The notes under the pieces were generated by a model. The model was given only the letters and a program-made list of their open reading frames with translations, did no database searches and was not told where the DNA came from. Shown here one piece after another: positions 19,349-36,642 of a stretch of DNA of 64,000 nucleotides. This DNA is from Alphaproteobacteria bacterium. Its GTDB lineage: Bacteria; Pseudomonadota; Alphaproteobacteria; UBA2136; UBA6156. Location: contig JAIXQG010000002.1 of the NCBI GenBank assembly GCA_027485835.1, positions 138,232 to 202,231 of the forward strand, written 5' to 3'. The position numbers were made by a program, and so were the translations under genes. The first letter of the stretch is position 1. Each line of letters starts with the position of its first letter.

Positions 19349-19669
19349 TTACAGCTTGATCTGCACGTCTACGCCGGAAGCGAGGTCCAGCTTCATCAGC
19401 GCGTCGATGGTTTGCGGGGTCGGCTCGACGATTTCCAGCACACGCTTGTGGGTGCGCATTTCGAAGTGCTCGCGGCTCTTCTTGTCGATGTGCGGGCTGC
19501 GCAGGACGCAGAAGCGTTCGATTTTGGTCGGCAGCGGAATCGGACCTTGAACCTTGGCGCCGGTACGACGGGCGGTTTCAACGATCTCGAGGGTGGATTT
19601 ATCCAGCACGCGGTGGTCGTAAGACTTTAGGCGAATACGGATGTTTTGTGCGGCTTCGGCGTTGGCCAT
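19349..19669 (-). CDS. rpsJ: 30S ribosomal protein S10
   Basis: Start set at [23 protein letters not shown], preceded by an aaggagg SD 8 nt upstream. The uS10 core ([18 protein letters not shown]...HFEMRTHKR) is present. The longer upstream ORF extension is rejected. Confidence 0.94.
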
Positions 19670-19919
19670 GAAGCGTTTCCTCCTTGTGTGCTTACGCTTT
19701 TGCCAGCGCATTGGCACGGTTACGACAAATGCCAAACCCCCTGTTTTGCCAAGGGTTTGGCTTAGACCTGATATTGGCAAACATCTCCAGGTCGCTATCT
19801 TTTTCCTGCCACAGGCATGCATACGCACACGAGGGCTTGGGGGCGATATAGGCGCTGGGGGCCTAGGTGTCAAGCGGAAAACATAGAAAAATGAATGGGG
19901 GTAAGGGATTTTCTTGCGG

Positions 19920-19960
19920 TGGTGGTTTGGGACAAAAAAGAACCTCCCCGTTTGGACCGG
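19920..19960 (-). terminator. rho-independent terminator (cctctccgg-tccaaac-ggggagg + T-run) after the 146-aa hypothetical gene
   Basis: Hairpin followed by ttctttttt on the minus strand, directly after the stop at 19982. Confidence 0.5.
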
Positions 19961-19981
19961 AGAGGTAGTGCGATATTGAGT

Positions 19982-20422
19982 TTAGGCGGTCTGATTGTAA
20001 TGAATGTACAGCAGGGACGACAAATTGTCGCACCACCAACTTCCGATTGCAGAACTCACTTCGACCCTTCTGTTACCCGTAAACATATAGGGATACGGGA
20101 CACTGTCATCCTCCTCCTGAAAGAAGAATGATACCTTCGAAGTCTTGTTGACCGACGCGAGGTAGCTCAGCACGAAGGCATTCAGAGACTCACGTGGAGT
20201 TGGAAGATCGTCAGTCGCATTTTCAGACCCAGCAAGTTCGAGTTCGACGCCGTCGACGAAGATGATTGTATAATCATCCCCACGATATTTCTGTCTCTTG
20301 TCGATAACTTCTATTTTTTTTGCAGCATCCAGAGCTGCAATAAGTTTGTTGCGGTCTGATTCGTTGATCTGAAGGATGGTGCGGATATTGAGAAGGTCGT
20401 CAGCAAACATATCTTTCTCCAT
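19982..20422 (-). CDS. hypothetical acidic protein (146 aa), lower-GC
   Basis: Complete ORF with its own terminator. No recognisable family. AT-richer than surrounding core genes. Confidence 0.45.
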   Translation of the reverse strand: MEKDMFADDLLNIRTILQINESDRNKLIAALDAAKKIEVIDKRQKYRGDDYTIIFVDGVELELAGSENATDDLPTPRESLNAFVLSYLASVNKTSKVSFFFQEEDDSVPYPYMFTGNRRVEVSSAIGSWWCDNLSSLLYIHYNQTA

Positions 20423-20574
20423 TTGTTTTGCTGGTTATTCTGGATACCATCGGCATACCTCACGCGTAATAACAGCCCTTCGGGCCGTACAAACGGTTCA
20501 GATATGTCGATGGCAGAGCCAGTCTACATTCTTATAGCTGCTGGCACATTTTACTTAGCTGACATAAAGAAAAA

Positions 20575-20600
20575 GCCGCCCGAAGGCGACTTTCTCCTCC
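20575..20600 (-). terminator. rho-independent terminator (gtcgcc-ttcg-ggcggc + TTTTT) after the 116-aa hypothetical gene
   Basis: Read directly from sequence on the minus strand. Confidence 0.5.
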
Positions 20601-20615
20601 CCGAAGGGACGTTCG

Positions 20616-20966
20616 TTAAGCTGAGATACCGAGCTTTGCCTTGAAAAAGTTCAAGGCATCGATAGCTTCCTGCAGCGCCCGCTCTGGGCTGAGGCCGAGA
20701 GCGCGGATGTGAACGTCGGTGGAGTGCGCCGCCAGTTCAGCGGCGGCAGCGAGGAAGTCACCACGCGACGCTTGTTCCTGAGCCGCGTACATCGCGGCTT
20801 CAGGGCCGCAATTTGCGGAATCCCAATCCGTCGGTTCGACAGGAGCTGGAATGGCTTTTGTCTTCTTCACCTCATACAGGAAGCGAGCGCGAGCGCCCCC
20901 GCGTACCGGGTAAGAGGTGGCGAAGAACGAAGCGGCAGCGGCAAGATTAACAGCAGTGTTCGACAT
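20616..20966 (-). CDS. hypothetical Ala-rich protein (116 aa)
   Basis: Complete ORF bracketed by a terminator downstream and palindromes upstream. No family recognised. Confidence 0.45.
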   Translation of the reverse strand: MSNTAVNLAAAASFFATSYPVRGGARARFLYEVKKTKAIPAPVEPTDWDSANCGPEAAMYAAQEQASRGDFLAAAAELAAHSTDVHIRALGLSPERALQEAIDALNFFKAKLGISA

Positions 20967-21221
20967 GATTTTGCTCCTATGGCGTTGGTGTCGACAAAAT
21001 GATCAGTCCCTACGGGACAGAAAAACGGCTCAGTACGAGCCAGTTTCCTGTCCCGTACCTAATGGTACTGTAATTCTTTATATACAGCCTCTCCAGCCGG
21101 TTTTGAAGGCGAACTGACAGGCTTTTTTATTCGTTTTATTTCGAGTCTAATTTATTTAAAAACATACAATTAAACCTTATTAAGTATCTACTACATTAGC
21201 TTTACAGCCCTCCTTTCATGG

Positions 21222-21256
21222 TCAAAAAAGGCCCGCCGTTGCTGGCGGGCCTTGTG
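21222..21256 (-). terminator. rho-independent terminator after gcrA (aggcccgcc-agcaa-cggcgggcct + T6)
   Basis: Perfect stem followed by a T-run on the minus strand. Confidence 0.6.
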
Positions 21257-21276
21257 TCGTGATTGTGATTGGTGGT

Positions 21277-21855
21277 TTAGACCATGGGTCGGTAGCGGCT
21301 GAGGCCGCGGTCATGAAGATCCGTGAAGTGACCAATCTTGACCTTGCCATTAGAGGCTTTCAAACGCTCCAAGTGACCGACGCAGATACTTCCACCCTCT
21401 TTAGCGGCTGGGTTGCCGCAGTAGAGAGCCTGTCCGCCCAAGTCAAAGCGGTCATCGCCGGGCATAAGGTACGTTTTGCACTGACCGTCGGCCAGTTCAA
21501 GCAACGTAACCCCCCGACAGGTAAAGCTTGGCTTCGCCTCGTCTTTCTTTGGCTTTCGTGGCGTTTGGCTGCGGGGCACTACCGGTTGCAGCAGGGCGGA
21601 GTATTTGCCTCCCTTCGGACGTTTGGGTTTGGCCGCAGAGTGTGACGACTTGCCTTTTGCCGCAGGCTTTTTGGCAGAACCTGCCGCCCGCTGCTGGGTT
21701 TTGCGTGCCGGAAGCTTGAGACGATACGCCTTACCCACGACGCAATTGACGGATGGCGCCCCTAACTTTTTGGCGATTTCGCTTTTGGAAAGCCCCTCAT
21801 CCCAATACTTTTTCAGATCTTCGACCGCTTCGGCGGTCCATGAGAACTCGGACAT
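21277..21855 (-). CDS. gcrA: GcrA family cell-cycle transcriptional regulator
   Basis: 'MSEFSWTAEAVEDLKKYWDEGLSKSEIAKKLGAPSVNCVVGKAYRLKLPAR' N-terminal domain, a basic linker, and a conserved Cys-containing C-terminal domain. Confidence 0.82.
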   Translation of the reverse strand: MSEFSWTAEAVEDLKKYWDEGLSKSEIAKKLGAPSVNCVVGKAYRLKLPARKTQQRAAGSAKKPAAKGKSSHSAAKPKRPKGGKYSALLQPVVPRSQTPRKPKKDEAKPSFTCRGVTLLELADGQCKTYLMPGDDRFDLGGQALYCGNPAAKEGGSICVGHLERLKASNGKVKIGHFTDLHDRGLSRYRPMV

Positions 21856-21934
21856 GTCTTACTCCTCGTAAAGAGTCATTTAATAGGAGAAACTGGCTGC
21901 GTAGTGAGTGTTTGTAAGATGTATTTGCATAAGG

Positions 21935-21965
21935 TGCAAAAGAAAAGGGGGCTAAAGCCCCCCCT
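21935..21965 (-). terminator. rho-independent terminator (gggggggc-ttta-gccccc + T-run) after the 129-aa membrane-protein gene
   Basis: Read directly from sequence. Confidence 0.5.
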
Positions 21966-21973
21966 TCCCTCAA

Positions 21974-22363
21974 TTAAAATAGAAAACCGCTCACAAATTC
22001 CCAAACGGGCGTAAAAGGCGCCCAAAGAATTTTGATTGTCGCCCATGCGATAAGCAAGGCGCTAAAATGCATAGCTAGTAACATAAAGACACTGCAAATA
22101 TGCACCATTTCAGCCATCACTGCATAAAGCCTGAATGATTCTTCCCTAAAAAGCATCATCAGAGCCAAGAGTATCAGAAGTACTATTAAACAGGCTGAGG
22201 ACTCAATTAACATTGTCCCTCTCTGCCATGCATTTTTCTCAAGAAGTCGGTTCACATTCAGGCATTTGCCTGAGAGCTTATGCTTGCGTTTAAACCCTTT
22301 AGCCACGTTTTTTGCCTTAGAGTTCAGTTGGTTTCTTAGCTCATTTAAGAGTCCTTTTTTCAT
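21974..22363 (-). CDS. hypothetical small membrane protein (129 aa), low-GC
   Basis: Basic N-terminus plus two or three hydrophobic helices. AT-rich. Own terminator. Confidence 0.45.
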   Translation of the reverse strand: MKKGLLNELRNQLNSKAKNVAKGFKRKHKLSGKCLNVNRLLEKNAWQRGTMLIESSACLIVLLILLALMMLFREESFRLYAVMAEMVHICSVFMLLAMHFSALLIAWATIKILWAPFTPVWEFVSGFLF

Positions 22364-22539
22364 GTTGTTTTTTCCTTATGATAGACCCCACGCGCGGCTG
22401 GGGTGTGCGCCGAGAACCGTTCCTCGTATAGATTTCCTTCCGTTTTAGAGGGTTAAAATGATTATAGATTCACGCATTCTAGTTATTAGTATACACAATG
22501 AATACACCAATTCAAGTATACAAATCAGTTTGGTTCCTA

Positions 22540-22572
22540 AAAAAAGGGCCCCGTGGGGCCCCTTCTCGTTGC
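22540..22572 (-). terminator. rho-independent terminator after rpoC (ggggcccc-acg-gggcccttttttt)
   Basis: Hairpin followed by T7 immediately after the rpoC stop. Confidence 0.65.
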
Positions 22573-22578
22573 GGTCTG

Positions 22579-26703
<4,125 letters not shown>

Positions 26704-26718
26704 AGTGCCAGCCTTTCT

Positions 26719-31134
<4,416 letters not shown>

Positions 31135-31386
31135 TCTTCAACACTTGTCTACGTCTAAACAGGTGTTAGCGATTCCTGCCCCTGAAGGAGCCGGAGGGGT
31201 GCTGTGTATTCGTGTACTAGTACAACAGCACGACACCGCGCTAAAATCCGCGGAGATAGACGGTTATTAGGCCTATTGCAACGCCCTGTCAAGCGGCGGT
31301 TTGTGGGATTTTTTTGGTGTATTTTCATCACGCCTTGTGGCAACGTCAAAGTCTTGTAACACCGACCCCCTTGAAAGGAGGTGACC

Positions 31387-31572
31387 ATGCTTTTTCTGCT
31401 AAACTTATTTTCGCCCAATCACTGGGAATGGAAGCCGGAGTTCACGCCTGACACTCCCCTTCATCCGCTCCTAAAGTGGATTGCATGCGCGTTGCTTACC
31501 TATCTCGCCGTCTATCTGGTGTTCCTGATGCAAGCCCCCATCCGTGGCGTTATGAATCTGATTTTCTCCTAA
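31387..31572 (+). CDS. hypothetical small single-TM protein (61 aa)
   Basis: Strong SD (aaggaggtgacc ATG) with a hydrophobic core. Located antisense to the rpoB 5' region. Confidence 0.35.
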   Translation: MLFLLNLFSPNHWEWKPEFTPDTPLHPLLKWIACALLTYLAVYLVFLMQAPIRGVMNLIFS

Positions 31573-31589
31573 CACACGAGGATCATAAC

Positions 31590-31757
31590 ATGTCCCACGA
31601 TATTCCTCCCGACGTGCCGGATAGATATACTATCCGCCTGCCCTTCCTTGGCTGTTTTCGGTCACCGCTACCGGCCAATGTATGGATCTTAGCCGCCATT
31701 TGCGGCGCCACCGTGCTGTATGGCTATAGCGCCATGATGCGCGGCGATTTTTTCTAA
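31590..31757 (+). CDS. hypothetical small single-TM protein (55 aa)
   Basis: SD (gagga) 7 nt upstream of the ATG. Hydrophobic helix. A rho-independent terminator follows. Confidence 0.35.
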   Translation: MSHDIPPDVPDRYTIRLPFLGCFRSPLPANVWILAAICGATVLYGYSAMMRGDFF

Positions 31758-31767
31758 AGTAGCGCGT

Positions 31768-31795
31768 ACGGCCCGAAAGGGCCGCTTTTTTTGGC
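31768..31795 (+). terminator. rho-independent terminator (cggccc-gaaa-gggccg + T7)
   Basis: Read directly from sequence. Confidence 0.55.
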
Positions 31796-31797
31796 CG

Positions 31798-32106
31798 TTA
31801 AACCGCCGCGTTTGGCTTGGCCCCGCGCTTGATGATGGAGAGATACCCGCCATTACCGCGACTGAGAAAGCGCGCGACGCGGGTGACGGTGGCAAGGGCG
31901 ATTCCGGTACGCGAAGCTACGTCCCGCTGGCTAAGACCCTGATGCAGCAAGCGTGCGGCATGCCAGCGGTCGGCAAAGGCGGCAATTTCGGTCGGCGTGC
32001 AGAGGTCGGCCAAAAAGGCTTTTACCTCTTCCGGAGTTTCTAACATCAGAAATGCGGCATAGAGGTCGGATTCCGACGGCTGATGGTGGGCGAGGTCTTT
32101 TTTCAT
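31798..32106 (-). CDS. YerC/YecD-family TrpR-like DNA-binding protein
   Basis: 102 aa with 'LCTPTEIAAFADRWHAARLL.QGLSQRDVASRTGIALATVTRVARFL', a trp-repressor-like HTH. It sits between rplL and rpoB. Confidence 0.7.
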   Translation of the reverse strand: MKKDLAHHQPSESDLYAAFLMLETPEEVKAFLADLCTPTEIAAFADRWHAARLLHQGLSQRDVASRTGIALATVTRVARFLSRGNGGYLSIIKRGAKPNAAV

Positions 32107-32149
32107 TTCTTATATAGTAGCAGATTGACGAAGATGGGATAGTGTATTA

Positions 32150-32171
32150 ATGTAATATTACGTTATTACAT
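32150..32171. promoter_or_regulatory. perfect 8-bp inverted repeat ATGTAATA-N6-TATTACAT in the divergent yerC / small-ORF intergenic region (candidate operator)
   Basis: Read directly from sequence. A TTGACG -35-like hexamer lies at 32129. Confidence 0.4.
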
Positions 32172-32187
32172 GCGGAGATCTGTAAAA

Positions 32188-32358
32188 ATGCATCTATTCT
32201 TTTCCACCCCCCTCAAACCTATTACCTCTAAAGAAGAAGCCGTGCGTCGCGTCAAAGCCATCATGAAGCGCAAGGAGGCGGCCGAGATTTGCGACGTTCC
32301 GGTCACCGACGAGCCTTTGCGCGAGCTTCCCAGTCACCTTCGTGACCGCGGCCTTTAA
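32188..32358 (+). CDS. hypothetical small protein (56 aa)
   Basis: SD ggaga 9 nt upstream. A terminator lies at 32376-32412. Divergent from yerC. Confidence 0.3.
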   Translation: MHLFFSTPLKPITSKEEAVRRVKAIMKRKEAAEICDVPVTDEPLRELPSHLRDRGL

Positions 32359-32375
32359 GCGCCCCTCCCCTTATT

Positions 32376-32412
32376 ACCCCGCAAGAGCTTTCAGCTTCTG
32401 CGGGGTTTTTCT
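32376..32412 (+). terminator. rho-independent terminator (ccccgcaagagctttcagcttctgcgggg + ttttt)
   Basis: Read directly from sequence. Confidence 0.45.
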
Positions 32413-32434
32413 ATCTAAGCCAATCTAACCCTAT

Positions 32435-32462
32435 AAAAAAACGGGCCAGAGGCCCGTTTTCC
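32435..32462 (-). terminator. rho-independent terminator after rplL (aacgggcc-tct-ggcccgtt + T7)
   Basis: Perfect stem plus T-run on the minus strand directly after the rplL stop. Confidence 0.65.
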
Positions 32463-32477
32463 CGAAACCGGTTAGAA

Positions 32478-32843
32478 CTACTTGAGTTCAACCTTGGCGC
32501 CAGCTGCTTCCAGCTTGGCCTTGATTTCTTCAGCGTCCTTCTTGGCAACGCCTTCCTTAACGACTTGCGGAGCGCCTTCAACGAGGTCCTTGGCTTCCTT
32601 GAGGCCCAGACCGGTCAGCTCACGAACAGCCTTGATCACGTCGATCTTCTTGTCGCCAGCGGCGGCCAGGGTCACGGTGAACTCGGTTTGCTCTTCAGCA
32701 GCCGGGCCAGCAGCAGCCATAACAGCTACCGGAGCAGCGGCGGATACGCCCCACTTTTCTTCCAGCATTTTGCTCAGTTCAGCAGCTTCCATAACGGTCA
32801 GGGTGCTGAGGGTTTCTACGATTTGTTGCAGGTTTGCAGACAT
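32478..32843 (-). CDS. rplL: 50S ribosomal protein L7/L12
   Basis: 121 aa with the conserved bL12 CTD '[38 protein letters not shown]'. Confidence 0.97.
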
Positions 32844-32866
32844 TTTAGTTTCCTTTAATTAAGAGA

Positions 32867-33361
32867 TTAGGCCGCAGCGGCTTCCGAGGTCTTCTCGGAG
32901 TACGCCTTGGTAACACGGGCCAGCTGGCCACCCGGCGCTTGCAGCACACCAATAATCTTGGCGCGAGCTTCGTCGAGGGTCGGAAGTTGGCTGATGGTCT
33001 TCACTTCGGCGGCGCTGAGCACCTTACCGTTCATGGAGCCGCCAACGATGACCAGCTTGTTGTTGGTGTCAGCGAACTTCTGGCTGATACGGGACGGTGC
33101 GATTTCGTCCGCGCTGAATGCGAGGACGGTCGGGCCGACCATAATGCTGGAGAGTTCTTCAAAGGCGGTGCCCTTAAATGCCAGCTTTGCCAGACGGTTT
33201 TTAGCCACCTGTACTTCGCCACCGGCTTCGCGCATCTGGCGACGCAGTTGGCTCATTTCCTTCACGGTCAGACCACGGTAGTGGGCCACCACGAGGGACT
33301 TGGCCGATGCGATACGCTCGGACAGGCTGCCGATAAAGGCTTGTTTCTGGGTACGATCCAT
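32867..33361 (-). CDS. rplJ: 50S ribosomal protein L10
   Basis: 164 aa uL10. Confidence 0.95.
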   Translation of the reverse strand: MDRTQKQAFIGSLSERIASAKSLVVAHYRGLTVKEMSQLRRQMREAGGEVQVAKNRLAKLAFKGTAFEELSSIMVGPTVLAFSADEIAPSRISQKFADTNNKLVIVGGSMNGKVLSAAEVKTISQLPTLDEARAKIIGVLQAPGGQLARVTKAYSEKTSEAAAA

Positions 33362-33590
33362 AGAGGATTCCCTTCCACTTGGTTACTTTGCCTACGCACC
33401 CCATGTGCGCATGCACACCAGTCTGAATTTCTGTGGAAACATCGCAGCCCCCTAAACAGGAGTGCGGATATTGCCCCTCGGTTGGAAATTAAGCCCCGCA
33501 ATTCGTTCAACAAATTACGTACCATGGGCGCCAACGGTCTTCAGGTGTTGGTGGCTCTATACGGGCCCACACCTGATATGTAAAGCAAAA
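33362..33590 (-). promoter_or_regulatory. rplJ 5' leader (probable L10(L12)4 autoregulatory leader and promoter)
   Basis: 228-nt untranslated region between a terminator and rplJ. Assigned by position only. Confidence 0.3.
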
Positions 33591-33596
33591 AAAGCA

Positions 33597-33626
33597 CCCG
33601 CATACGCTGCGGGTGCCCTTCTCTAC
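33597..33626 (-). terminator. rho-independent terminator after the PCP-like gene (gcacccgcatacgctgcgggtgc + T7)
   Basis: Read directly from sequence on the minus strand. Confidence 0.5.
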
Positions 33627-33637
33627 TTATATATAGC

Positions 33638-35242
33638 TTAATCCAGCTTGGCTTTTAAAGTCGCCTTGCGCAGCATGCGGGCCAGCGGAGGCACAACTTT
33701 GGCCAAACGGTCTGCCAACTGGCCCAGCAACTGGCGGCGGCTCAGCACAAACTGCATGTTCAGCACCACACCCAGCAGTGGGGCACCTACCAGCAGCAAG
33801 CTATCGGTGGCGCGCTTAAGCTCGGACTGTGTGGTGACACCCGCTTGCGCCAGCAGCAGCGTGCGAGCACTTGCAGAAGCGACAGCAACAGCATCCACAT
33901 TCCCGCGGTTCACGGCGGCCAGCGGGCTACCATCCACAATCACGATATCGGCCATGTCGGTCAGCATATCGAACAGTACCGGCAAACCACCCGCCTCGCC
34001 CAGCTTGCTCAGGGTTTCCGGATGGCGCGGTGCGGCCAGAAGCTTCATATTCTCGTTACCGGGCATGGGTTGCAAAGCATCCCAGCCGCCTTTTTTGGGT
34101 TTGGCGCCCTTCGGCAATTCCCAGTTACCATCGCCCAAGCCCAGCCATTGGCTCAGCATACGGTCACGCAGGTTCATATCGACCAGAATCACGGTTTTAC
34201 CTTGCTCAGATGTCCGTTCCGCCAACAGCAGGGCCAGCGTGCTGCTGCCTTCCGAGCCCTTCGGCCCCAAAACCACTAACGGCCCACGCAGGTTGCGCAC
34301 CAGAGAGCGGTGCAGGCGGCCGAGCTCACTGAACTCCGACGGGCGCAGCTTTTTGCCACCGGCCATCACATGCAGACCGCGCGGGGTAATATTCAGTTTG
34401 CCCAGCCACGGCAGGGTACCCACAACTTGCATATCACTGGCCTTAGTTGCGTCATCTTCACCTTCAATCACCGCACGGTTGGCAAAGGGCAGCTTTTGCA
34501 GCAAGCCGAACAGCAGGCCACCGAGCAGACCCGCCAGAATCATGTTCGCTACAACACGGGCAGTACCTTGCAGCGGCTCACTCATCGTCGCGGTTTCGGC
34601 AAACCATACCAGCGCTTGGCTCCCGTGGCGGCCAAAGGCTAAATTCACACGGCGCAGGTCGCTTTGCAGCTGCACGGTGTCGCCCTGCAATTTTTCGCTA
34701 CGGGCGTTCAATTCCAAGCGGGTCGCTTCGTCGGCACCATCGGAGGTGGCCAAACGACCGACGATTTCTTTCAGCTCCTGCTGGTTTTGCAGAATCATCT
34801 GCTCCAAGCGCATGCGCTCCGGTGCCAGCAAGGCCTGAATAAAGTTATAGGCCAGTGCATCCGTCATCTGCTCCAAACCTTCCGGCTTGGTGCTGCGGTA
34901 GCTGATGGTCATCAAATTGTTGTTAATGACGCGCAGCGAGACCTTATCGGCCTCAATCTTACGGTGTGCATCAGCACCTGTATCTGCTAGCAATTGCGGG
35001 TTGACCAAAATCTGGCGTAAAGCTTCACCCTGACCAGGCGCGCTAATACTCTGTAACAGTGGCGATTTCGCTTGATCCGACTGCACTTGCAACAAGGCGG
35101 TAGCCTCAAATGTGGGCGGCACCTGCACGCTGTAAATTGCCGCCAGCAGAGTGAACACCACTACAGGCACACCTATTTTGACGCGCACGCGCCACATTTC
35201 TGCCAATGTATTCAAGATGATATTCATAGAGCGCGCTTTCAT
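33638..35242 (-). CDS. polysaccharide co-polymerase (Wzz/GumC/ExoP-like) protein with degenerate C-terminal BY-kinase-like ATPase domain
   Basis: 534 aa with N-terminal TM + periplasmic coiled-coil + second TM topology. C-terminal P-loop-like 'VVLGPKGSEGSSTLA' lacks the Walker-A Lys (GKS->GSS). 'VILVDMNLRD' is a degenerate Walker A'. 'DIVIVDGSP' is Walker-B-like. Confidence 0.65.
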   Translation of the reverse strand: MKARSMNIILNTLAEMWRVRVKIGVPVVVFTLLAAIYSVQVPPTFEATALLQVQSDQAKSPLLQSISAPGQGEALRQILVNPQLLADTGADAHRKIEADKVSLRVINNNLMTISYRSTKPEGLEQMTDALAYNFIQALLAPERMRLEQMILQNQQELKEIVGRLATSDGADEATRLELNARSEKLQGDTVQLQSDLRRVNLAFGRHGSQALVWFAETATMSEPLQGTARVVANMILAGLLGGLLFGLLQKLPFANRAVIEGEDDATKASDMQVVGTLPWLGKLNITPRGLHVMAGGKKLRPSEFSELGRLHRSLVRNLRGPLVVLGPKGSEGSSTLALLLAERTSEQGKTVILVDMNLRDRMLSQWLGLGDGNWELPKGAKPKKGGWDALQPMPGNENMKLLAAPRHPETLSKLGEAGGLPVLFDMLTDMADIVIVDGSPLAAVNRGNVDAVAVASASARTLLLAQAGVTTQSELKRATDSLLLVGAPLLGVVLNMQFVLSRRQLLGQLADRLAKVVPPLARMLRKATLKAKLD

Positions 35243-35488
35243 TGCGTTGTGCCTCGTGGGGCTTCTTTTTTACCGAGGGCCAAAGCCCACCTTTGTTGGT
35301 TGGATATTATAGAGAGGTGCACAAGTCTGGCAATGGTGCTGCCAGACATATCGGCAACCACGATGCACAACACCTTCATACGCTTGACACTTCCGCAACA
35401 TCAGCCTATATCGCCCTCACTACACCCGCGCGTTTAGGCGTTTAGCGGTCTGTGTAGGAGTTATATCAACGAACGGAGAGTATTAGCC

Positions 35489-35920
35489 ATGGCTAAGAAA
35501 ATCGCCGGCTTCGTCAAGCTGCAAGTGCCAGCTGGCGCCGCCAACCCGGCCCCGCCCGTAGGTCCCGCTCTGGGCCAAAAGGGTTTGAACATTATGGAAT
35601 TCTGCAAGGCCTTCAACGCTGCCACCCAGCCGCCGAAGTTTGCCGCAGGCACCCCGATTCCCGTCATCATCACCGCATACGCCGACCGTACCTTCACCTT
35701 CGAGCTGAAGACCCCGCCGGCCAGCTGGTACCTGATGCAAGCCGCCAGCATTAAAAAGGGCGCCAAAACCCCGAACGTGCCGATCGGCCAAGTTAAGCGC
35801 GCTGAAGTGAAGAAAATTGCTGAAGCCAAGATGGTCGACCTCAACGCCAACTCTGTTGAGCAAGCCATGAAGATTATTGAAGGCAGCGCCCGCTCTATGG
35901 GCCTGACCGTAGTAGACTAA
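35489..35920 (+). CDS. rplK: 50S ribosomal protein L11
   Basis: 143 aa with '[43 protein letters not shown]', uL11. Confidence 0.97.
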
Positions 35921-35934
35921 GGAAGGACACGACC

Positions 35935-36642
35935 ATGGCTACTAAGAAGTCCACTAAACTCACCTCCGCCAAGCCGAAAAAGGTTTTCCCGGAGTTTGAC
36001 CGCCTGAAGGCCTACAGCCTTGATGAAGCGCTGAAGCTGCTGGCTACCATGCCGGCTGCCAAGTTCGACGAATCCGTCGACGTTGCGCTGAACCTGGGCG
36101 TAGACCCCAAGTATAACGACCAAATGGTACGTGGCGTTGTGTCGCTGCCCCACGGCAACGGTAAAACCGTCCGCGTGGCCGTGTTCGCCAAGGGCGCCGC
36201 TGCCGATGAAGCCCGTGCCGCCGGTGCCGACGTTGTGGGCCTGGAAGATCTGATTGCTCAGGTTGAAAAGGGCGACATCAACTTCGACCGTGTAATCGCG
36301 ACCCCCGACTGCATGCCGCAGCTTGGTAAAATCGCCCGTATCCTCGGCCCGAAAGGCATGATGCCGAACCCAAAGCTGGGCACCGTAACCCCCAACGTGG
36401 CCAAGGCCGTGAAGGACGTTAAGGGCGGGATGATCGAGTTCAAGGTTGAAAAAGCCGGTATCATCCACGCCGGTGTCGGCAAGCGCAGCTTCTCCTCCGA
36501 CAAGCTGGCTGCCAACATCAAGGCCTTGGTAGACGCTGTGAAGGCCGCCAAGCCCTCCGGCGCCAAGAGCAACTACCTGCTGAAGCTGGCGATTACCGCC
36601 ACTCAAGCCCCTGCCATCAAGGTAGACTTGAGCAGCCTGTAA
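35935..36642 (+). CDS. rplA: 50S ribosomal protein L1
   Basis: 235 aa uL1. Confidence 0.97.
   Translation: MATKKSTKLTSAKPKKVFPEFDRLKAYSLDEALKLLATMPAAKFDESVDVALNLGVDPKYNDQMVRGVVSLPHGNGKTVRVAVFAKGAAADEARAAGADVVGLEDLIAQVEKGDINFDRVIATPDCMPQLGKIARILGPKGMMPNPKLGTVTPNVAKAVKDVKGGMIEFKVEKAGIIHAGVGKRSFSSDKLAANIKALVDAVKAAKPSGAKSNYLLKLAITATQAPAIKVDLSSL

Follow-up and report, generated by a model that had tools for sequence, protein, structure and literature searches.

The genes for ribosomal protein L7/L12 (rplL) and the RNA polymerase beta subunit (rpoB) are separated by a 1.34- to 1.37-kb island in a 64,000-nucleotide stretch of DNA from an Alphaproteobacteria bacterium (contig JAIXQG010000002.1, positions 138,232 to 202,231; hereafter the window, in which all coordinates are given). 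The island carries, on the strand of both genes, a gene for a 102-aa protein of the HisR (YerC/YecD) repressor family, along with three short open reading frames (ORFs) on the opposite strand. Sequences matching the HisR operator occur upstream of the hisR-like gene and again in the predicted leader of rpoBC. We propose, with moderate confidence, that the product of this gene is a HisR-like repressor acting both on its own gene and on rpoBC. The evidence, obtained in silico, comprises the family assignment, the operator matches with their statistics, the conservation of synteny, promoter, and boxes among relatives, and the coding constraint on two of the short ORFs (orf61 and orf55).

A HisR-family gene between rplL and rpoB

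The length of the spacer, measured from the rplL stop codon (32478) to the start of the rpoB ORF (31134) or to its true ATG (31107), agrees with the 1.34 kb given in an earlier note on this DNA. On the minus strand, the order is rplJ (33361-32867, from the ORF list), rplL (32478-32843; 121 aa; Pfam Ribosomal_L12, 1.3e-30, and Ribosomal_L12_N, 4.7e-20), a strong terminator, the 102-aa hisR-like gene (31798-32106), and rpoB (26719-31107), whose ATG is preceded by AGAGGG. The rpoB N terminus could be aligned in all lineages, and the orthologous genes carry RNA_pol_Rpb2 Pfam domains. The intrinsic terminator (32431-32463, minus strand), which the note had also placed right after rplL, consists of a 13-bp GC-rich stem (32463-32435), a 3-nt loop, and a U-run. 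Its folding energy (dG, -24 kcal/mol; z score, -4.0) was equaled by none of 200 shuffled sequences, and the related lineages L175 and L176 likewise have a terminator after rplL. This predicted terminator uncouples rplJL from the downstream genes.

The 102-aa protein matched Pfam Trp_repressor (PF01371) with an E value of 6.6e-20 and 71.4 bits (cut-off, 27) and passed the NCBIfam YerC/YecD model TIGR02531 (58 bits versus a cut-off of 42.2), which bears out the earlier annotation of a same-strand, YerC/YecD TrpR-like helix-turn-helix gene. It stayed below the cut-off of the TrpR equivalog TIGR01321 (26.9 versus 67.25 bits). Its closest PDB matches were 3G1C, 3FRW, and 3KOR (E about 2e-12), the first of which is HisR of E. 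eligens (PMC9413887). HisR (YerC) is a TrpR-family, histidine-dependent repressor of his operons, and autoregulation is common in its family (Ashniev et al. 2022, PMC9413887).

The surroundings of regulator relatives were compared at 160 loci from reference genomes and metagenomes, with neighboring genes clustered and the common ones identified by Pfam. A gene for HisG directly followed hisR at 94 of the 139 informative homologous loci, usually with HisD, HisH, and HisA next in line, and hisR in relatives outside the clade of the window was nearly always the first gene of a hisR-hisG-hisD operon. No his genes were found in the 64-kb window, the part of the genome that was scanned. The rpoB-linked proteins formed a monophyletic group in a neighbor-joining tree (outgroup, E. 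coli TrpR), sister to all hisG-linked proteobacterial HisR proteins sampled. The dN/dS ratio of hisR is 0.04 to 0.06, and the recognition helix, TVTRVARFL, is identical in the rpoB-linked regulator and in the consensus of hisG-linked HisR proteins.

Predicted operators upstream of hisR and in the rpoBC leader

The earlier note had singled out a perfect 8-bp palindrome upstream of the regulator gene as an operator candidate. The palindrome, TAATATTA, is real and matches a HisR box, but it does not stand alone. It extends to GTAATATTAC (32152-32161) and is formed where two 20-bp HisR-type boxes, 8 bp apart in register, overlap. The two boxes, A (32151-32170) and B (32143-32162), form a predicted tandem operator (32143-32170) located 37 to 64 nt upstream of the hisR ATG. 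The box consensus of proteobacterial HisR is a 20-bp palindrome, TGTAnTArnnnnyTnTTACA (PMC9413887). Box A, TGTAATATTACGTTATTACA, has no mismatches to the core pattern TGTAnTAnnnnnnTAnTACA, and box B has one. The tandem box before hisR is kept in L001, L081, L161, L164, L169, L171, L172, and L174.

For scoring, the best box upstream of hisR was collected in other loci, where 122 of 156 had at most two mismatches to the consensus, and a symmetric position weight matrix (PWM) was built from 57 unique boxes, none of them from the clade of the window (training median, 25.3 bits). An upstream box of at least 18 bits was present at 147 other hisR loci. A second box (at least 10 bits) accompanied it in 62 of these 147, at an offset of +8 or -8 only; the tandem 8-bp register is thus a family trait. 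The three highest scores in the 64 kb all fall inside the island: 21.3 bits at 32151, 20.5 bits at 32143, and 18.2 bits at 31205, with per-position P values of 4e-8, 6e-8, and 2e-7 (exact score statistics). The lowest of these scores was reached in only 1% of 200 Markov-simulated 64-kb sequences. The fourth score (11.6 bits) belongs to a site 8 bp from the box at 31205, and the next, unrelated one is 8.5 bits. A site with two mismatches to the HisR pattern, CTTATTAAGTATCTACTACA (21176-21195), just downstream of a gcrA homologue, scores below 8 bits and probably occurs by chance. Because the tandem boxes precede the gene and autoregulation is a property of the family, hisR most likely represses itself, as do many HisR and TrpR systems.

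The box at 31205 lies in the predicted leader of rpoBC. Upstream of rpoB, a putative sigma-70-type promoter (31264-31292, minus strand) combines TTGACA (31292-31287) and TAATAA (31269-31264) at a spacing of 17 nt; the motifs CTTGACA and CCTA(A/T)TA(A/C)CC and their 17-nt distance are invariant in the nine lineages aligned. Conservation starts abruptly about 45 nt upstream of this promoter, and the sequence beyond cannot be aligned. L164 and L169 have the rpoB promoter about 20 to 50 nt past the hisR stop codon, with no terminator between. No convincing -35/-10 elements were recognized by eye for hisR, orf56, or orf61-orf55, and a promoter consensus scan returned promoter-like sites no more often than in shuffled sequence.

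The leader downstream of the predicted start is structured. RNA hairpin 1 (CCGCG-GATTTTAG-CGCGG; 31236-31253, minus strand) would be 5'-terminal, at about +5 to +22, and one of its pairs is G-C in five lineages, A-U in three, and G-U in one (RNAalifold). Hairpin 3 (31174-31195, minus strand; loop UUCA) has three pairs that covary across the nine lineages (RNAalifold). Hairpins 1 and 3 (together 31174-31253) match no Rfam family. The predicted HisR-type leader box (31205-31224, about +34 to +53) lies between these hairpins, and between orf61 and rpoB; with a weaker neighbor in 8-bp register (31213-31232), it spans 31205-31232. It has one mismatch to the consensus and, in the window, a P value of 2.2e-7 per position. 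Orthologous leader boxes score 27.2 bits in L001 and L161, 26.4 in L164, 25.9 in L171, 18.2 in L169, and 17.3 in L172, with P values of about 1e-9 per position in sister lineages. The sequence of the box varies across the seven lineages (window included), and the frame TGTA...TA......TA..TACA is kept. The noncoding leaders of the window and L001 are 88% identical overall and nearly invariant from promoter to start codon, next to proportions of synonymous differences (pS) of 0.31 in rpoB and 0.57 in hisR.

Conservation of the hisR-rpoB arrangement

The first scans yielded the same arrangement in one reference genome, L001 (a metagenome-assembled genome labeled Blastochloris viridis, with a HisR 94% identical to that of the window), and in one metagenome contig, L081; a protein search added relatives whose identities fall gradually from 90% to 59% (L161, L164, L165-168, L169-173, L174, L175-177, and L178). 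On the contigs of these relatives, rpl(K-A-)J-L is followed by variable DNA, then hisR, in some cases a small antisense ORF, and finally rpoB-rpoC. In all 12 distinct related lineages, hisR stands between rplL and rpoB, the L174 contig ending before rpoB. The earlier note had asked for a synteny comparison and named a lack of the island in relatives as evidence against its reading; the core of the island is retained even in relatives whose regulators are only 59% identical. Judged from these alignments, the putative conserved core is hisR with its tandem operator, followed by the rpoB promoter with the leader operator, and the accessory cargo is variable.

The leader box persists in L164 and L169, which lack the micro-ORFs, so that there it can only face rpoB. 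At the corresponding position, the deepest lineages have a short plain hairpin or nonmatching sequence. The putative leader operator is a derived feature of the clade whose HisR proteins are at least 75% identical to that of the window.

The upstream part of the cluster is rearranged in the window, where a wzz-rplK-rplA segment (33638-36642) is inverted: a gene for a Wzz-like chain-length determinant (33638-35242, minus strand) lies directly upstream of rplJ, and rplK (35489-35920) and rplA (35935-36642) point opposite to rplJ. The distant relatives L169, L171, L172, L175, and L176 have a collinear rplK-rplA-rplJ-rplL, with wzz upstream of rplK. Synonymous divergence (dS) also changes along the locus (window versus L001, L161, and L164), from about 0.13 in rplL and 0.2 in rplJ to 0.4 to 0.5 in rpoB and 1.1 to 1.4 in hisR, the micro-ORFs being saturated. 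This gradient may stem from codon-usage constraint in highly expressed genes or from recombination that homogenizes the flanks.

A repressor model for rpoBC and its alternatives

In the model that we favor, transcription of rplJL would stop at the strong terminator after rplL. The HisR-family repressor gene follows, and repressor bound at the tandem boxes in front of it would bring about self-repression. rpoBC would be transcribed from its own promoter (TTGACA-17-TAATAA) into a leader with two covarying hairpins and a third HisR box between them. Dimers of the ligand-bound repressor on this box and on its weaker 8-bp neighbor would hinder RNA polymerase just past initiation, and synthesis of beta and beta' would thereby respond to the ligand of the repressor. 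In L164 and L169, which have no terminator after hisR, rpoBC would receive additional transcription by read-through from the autoregulated hisR promoter. The pair orf61 and orf55 would have been inserted as accessory cargo between the regulator and the rpoB promoter. Regulator binding, the ligand, the direction and size of any effect on rpoBC, and the transcription start sites are inferred. The earlier suggestion that rpoBC is controlled from within the island thus appears plausible through the HisR-type leader box, and not by the route proposed at the time, that of the micro-ORFs.

Several points weigh against this model. The leader box is downstream of the predicted start and not over the -35/-10 elements, which is a weaker position for repression. 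The window's own copy is one mismatch off the consensus (18.2 bits), and L175, L176, and L178 (59 to 62% identity) have no detectable leader box. Once transcribed, a palindromic operator may also fold into a hairpin. It runs against physiological intuition that abundance of an amino acid should lead to repression of the RNA polymerase genes. Finally, the rpoB-linked proteins are changed at otherwise conserved positions (SQR for SYR and AL for ST). Histidine would be the ligand by family inference; with these substitutions, it cannot be assumed to be so, and the separate branch and changed positions suggest that the ligand may be another one.

The alternative that fares best, although we regard it as unlikely, is that an ordinary his-operon repressor landed between rplL and rpoB, controls his genes elsewhere, and leaves rpoBC essentially unaffected. 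The leader box would then serve either hisR autoregulation, for example as an auxiliary operator beside the gene, or the promoter of the divergent micro-ORFs. Such a history fits the family membership of the regulator, the hisG linkage of its relatives, and the common autoregulation in the family (PMC9413887). It also fits the weak repressing position downstream of the predicted rpoB start and, in three lineages, the location of the box in a region shared with the divergent orf61-orf55 unit. However, the box is kept at 26.4 bits in L164 and at 18.2 bits in L169 without the micro-ORFs, and the adjacency of hisR and rpoB is kept down to 59% HisR identity while the surroundings reshuffle. As for an auxiliary operator, we know of no looping by TrpR-family dimers over 470 to 950 bp.

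We consider it improbable that the leader palindrome is functionally an RNA element that acts in processing, in stability, or in attenuation, like the rplL-rpoB spacer of E. coli, and that its likeness to a HisR box is a by-product with no protein on the DNA. The leader is indeed structured, with compensatory changes in hairpins 1 and 3; in L175 and L176, this place is taken by a plain 7-bp hairpin; the flanks in the window, GTGCTGT and ACAGCAC, can close a stem around the box; and the T-G that L169, L171, and L172 have instead of T-A would still allow G-U pairing. However, a PWM derived from unrelated loci gives 26 to 27 bits (P about 1e-9), far above what complementarity alone would yield, and the TGTA/TACA ends stay invariant instead of covarying. 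Conservation does not extend to the basal stem (ACATCAC in L001, L161, and L164; no closure in L169), and the box falls outside the RNAalifold consensus structure. The leader box is, moreover, closely similar to the hisR operator (CGTAATATTACATTAATACA in the window versus TGTAATATTACATTGTTACA in L172). A role as RNA hairpin only was therefore judged less likely: a frame kept while the sequence varies, a flanking stem that is not maintained, and resemblance to the hisR operator argue for sequence-specific recognition of the leader box over mere RNA pairing.

Micro-ORFs and variable DNA of the island

Two small membrane proteins are encoded on the plus strand between hisR and rpoB: orf61 (31387-31572; 61 aa), with the Shine-Dalgarno (SD) sequence GGAGG and one transmembrane (TM) segment, and orf55 (31590-31757; 55 aa), with the SD sequence GAGGA and one hydrophobic window. 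A terminator scan and folds of both strands placed a terminator of this unit at 31769-31793 (plus strand), a GCGGCCC/GGGCCG(C/U) hairpin of unexceptional energy (z score, -0.3) followed by a U-run on the plus strand only. The hairpin has no U-run on the hisR strand, so that read-through from hisR is possible. Both ORFs are open and start-aligned in L001 and L161, with 42 to 68% amino acid identity (46 to 65% for orf55), and the orf61 versions there have 72 to 74 aa and two TM segments. The proportion of nonsynonymous differences (pN) was 0.19 to 0.40 against a pS of 0.62 to 0.74 in orf61, and 0.21 to 0.40 against 0.71 to 0.82 in orf55, synonymous sites being saturated. Searches of large databases matched orf55 and orf61 only to the genome of the window and one sister lineage, none of the three micro-ORFs matched a Pfam or NCBIfam family, and orf61 and orf55 are absent from L164, L169, L175, L176, and L178. 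L171 and L172 have a single 76-aa, two-TM antisense ORF at the place of orf61; a profile comparison of the two families was not significant (probability, 3.7%). This pattern of identity and constraint indicates that orf61 and orf55 are real, accessory coding genes, weakly constrained and restricted to the clade.

The earlier description of two convergent, SD-bearing, single-TM micro-proteins that end in a terminator holds for the ORFs, their SD sequences, the one hydrophobic segment in each, and the hairpin with its U-run. The ORFs are not antisense to the 5' region of rpoB. Their position is upstream of the rpoB promoter, and their transcription runs away from rpoB, divergently, and convergently with hisR. 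The reading that went with it, a type-I toxin-like or antisense system controlling rpoB, is very improbable: the proteins are small, hydrophobic, and under coding constraint, and hisR transcripts running past the U-run-less hairpin would be antisense to them, but these tandem ORFs overlap neither rpoB nor its predicted leader, have normal SD sequences, are missing from the five lineages just named, match no toxin family, and are limited to this clade, with no Rfam match in the window.

The third short ORF, orf56 (32188-32358, plus strand; 62 aa if started at 32170), is hydrophilic, has an SD sequence, and diverges from hisR, with the palindrome between the two genes, as the earlier note had described. 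A terminator-like hairpin with a U-run follows it (32376-32406 or 32376-32412, plus strand; dG, -21.1 kcal/mol; z score, -4.05). Among 1.84 billion representatives, the 56- or 62-aa protein matched only itself. The ORF is absent from the sister lineages, whose homology with the window begins exactly at 32170, the outer edge of the HisR boxes. A search for conservation of the micro-ORFs, which the note had called for, thus came out in favor of orf61 and orf55 within the clade (L001 and L161) and left the 56-aa ORF as an unconserved orphan.

Between the rplL terminator and the HisR boxes, each close lineage has different DNA: about 290 nt in the window, a gene for a 160-aa protein in L161, genes for 160-aa and 155-aa proteins in L001, and an unrelated 54-aa antisense ORF in L164. 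In this hypervariable insertion/deletion hot spot inside the rif cluster, orf56 is an orphan. Most relatives have one or two same-strand genes without a Pfam match between rplL and hisR, from two weakly related families, one of about 160 aa whose members start with MRILIVF and one of about 155 aa (L001, 4509-5699; L161, 2131-2613; L169, 7209-7673; L171, 6364-7629; L174, 5171-5737), which the window has lost. No remnants of these genes were found in the orf56 region.

Other features of the window

Neither an E-value search of 30000-34500 nor a gathering-threshold search of the whole window returned an Rfam family. The rpoB gene contains a Lys/Ala/Glu-rich low-complexity insertion of about 80 aa (residues about 250 to 335; about 30130-30390), a variant of which is present in L001. 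A 2827-aa ORF on the plus strand (22498-30981), antisense to rpoC and rpoB, is almost certainly a stop-free antisense frame that results from codon bias and not a gene. Downstream of rpoC, a homologue of the cell-cycle regulator GcrA (21277-21855; Pfam, 9.3e-23) is followed by about 1.4 kb (19880-21270) with only unannotated ORFs of 116 to 146 aa, and then by rpsJ-rplC-rplD-rplB (region 19349-26703). Between rpoC and S10, the window lacks the str operon (rpsL-rpsG-fusA-tuf) that is usually located there.

Significance and comparison with known systems

The rplKAJL-rpoBC block ranks among the best-conserved gene arrangements of bacteria (PMC8046335). In a whole clade of uncultured alphaproteobacteria, this block stably harbors a gene for a known class of amino-acid repressor. 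The locus also reveals an insertion hot spot within an operon cluster that is supposed to be rigid, as well as two small membrane proteins that are specific to the clade and under purifying selection. To our knowledge, control of rpoBC works by read-through or attenuation together with autogenous feedback, and not by a metabolite-sensing repressor. Our literature searches returned no report linking HisR or YerC to rpoB, nor any comparable direct control of rpoBC by a transcription factor. More tentatively than the model itself, we suggest that a repressor of the HisR/TrpR family may have been recruited as a dedicated rpoBC regulator, which would make core RNA polymerase levels depend directly on an amino-acid signal, be it histidine or a new ligand. 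If the predicted binding is real, the HisR-family regulon would reach from histidine genes to the transcription machinery, the locus would constitute a compact natural switch for RNA polymerase dosage, and a local metabolic regulator would have been repurposed through gene relocation and operator duplication.

With the HisR proteins described previously (PMC9413887), the regulator shares membership in TIGR02531 and PF01371, a length of about 100 aa, the structural relatives 3G1C, 3FRW, and 3KOR, the type of 20-bp palindromic box, a box before its own gene, and the recognition helix. In contrast to these proteins, it is encoded by a gene fixed between rplL and rpoB that does not head a his operon, with no his genes within 64 kb; it belongs to a separate sister branch with substitutions of its own, and it is accompanied by an extra operator candidate in the rpoBC leader.

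E. coli TrpR is known to bind in tandem, which the 8-bp tandem register found here recalls. Fold and family are the same, as is a 20-bp palindrome with TGTA...TACA ends, whose left half in the leader box, TGTACTAGT, is identical to the consensus half-site of TrpR. An 8-bp register of tandem sites and autoregulation, the latter predicted in our case, are also common to both. Unlike TrpR, the regulator scores far under the equivalog cut-off (26.9 versus 67.25 bits) and has no linkage to trp or aro genes.

The micro-ORFs have in common with type-I toxin-antitoxin loci the short hydrophobic peptides encoded between genes and a possible convergent antisense transcription. They differ in that two tandem ORFs with ordinary ribosome-binding sites are present, without overlap with rpoB, and that sister lineages can do without them; the searches identified no gene for an antisense RNA at the locus.

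Finally, the locus resembles the E. coli-type rplJL-rpoBC operon with its rplL-rpoB attenuator in gene order and in having a structured RNA leader before rpoB. It differs from it in that a complete terminator follows rplL, a regulator gene is inserted, rpoB has a dedicated and conserved promoter, and the leader contains an operator candidate, an arrangement that would replace simple partial read-through.

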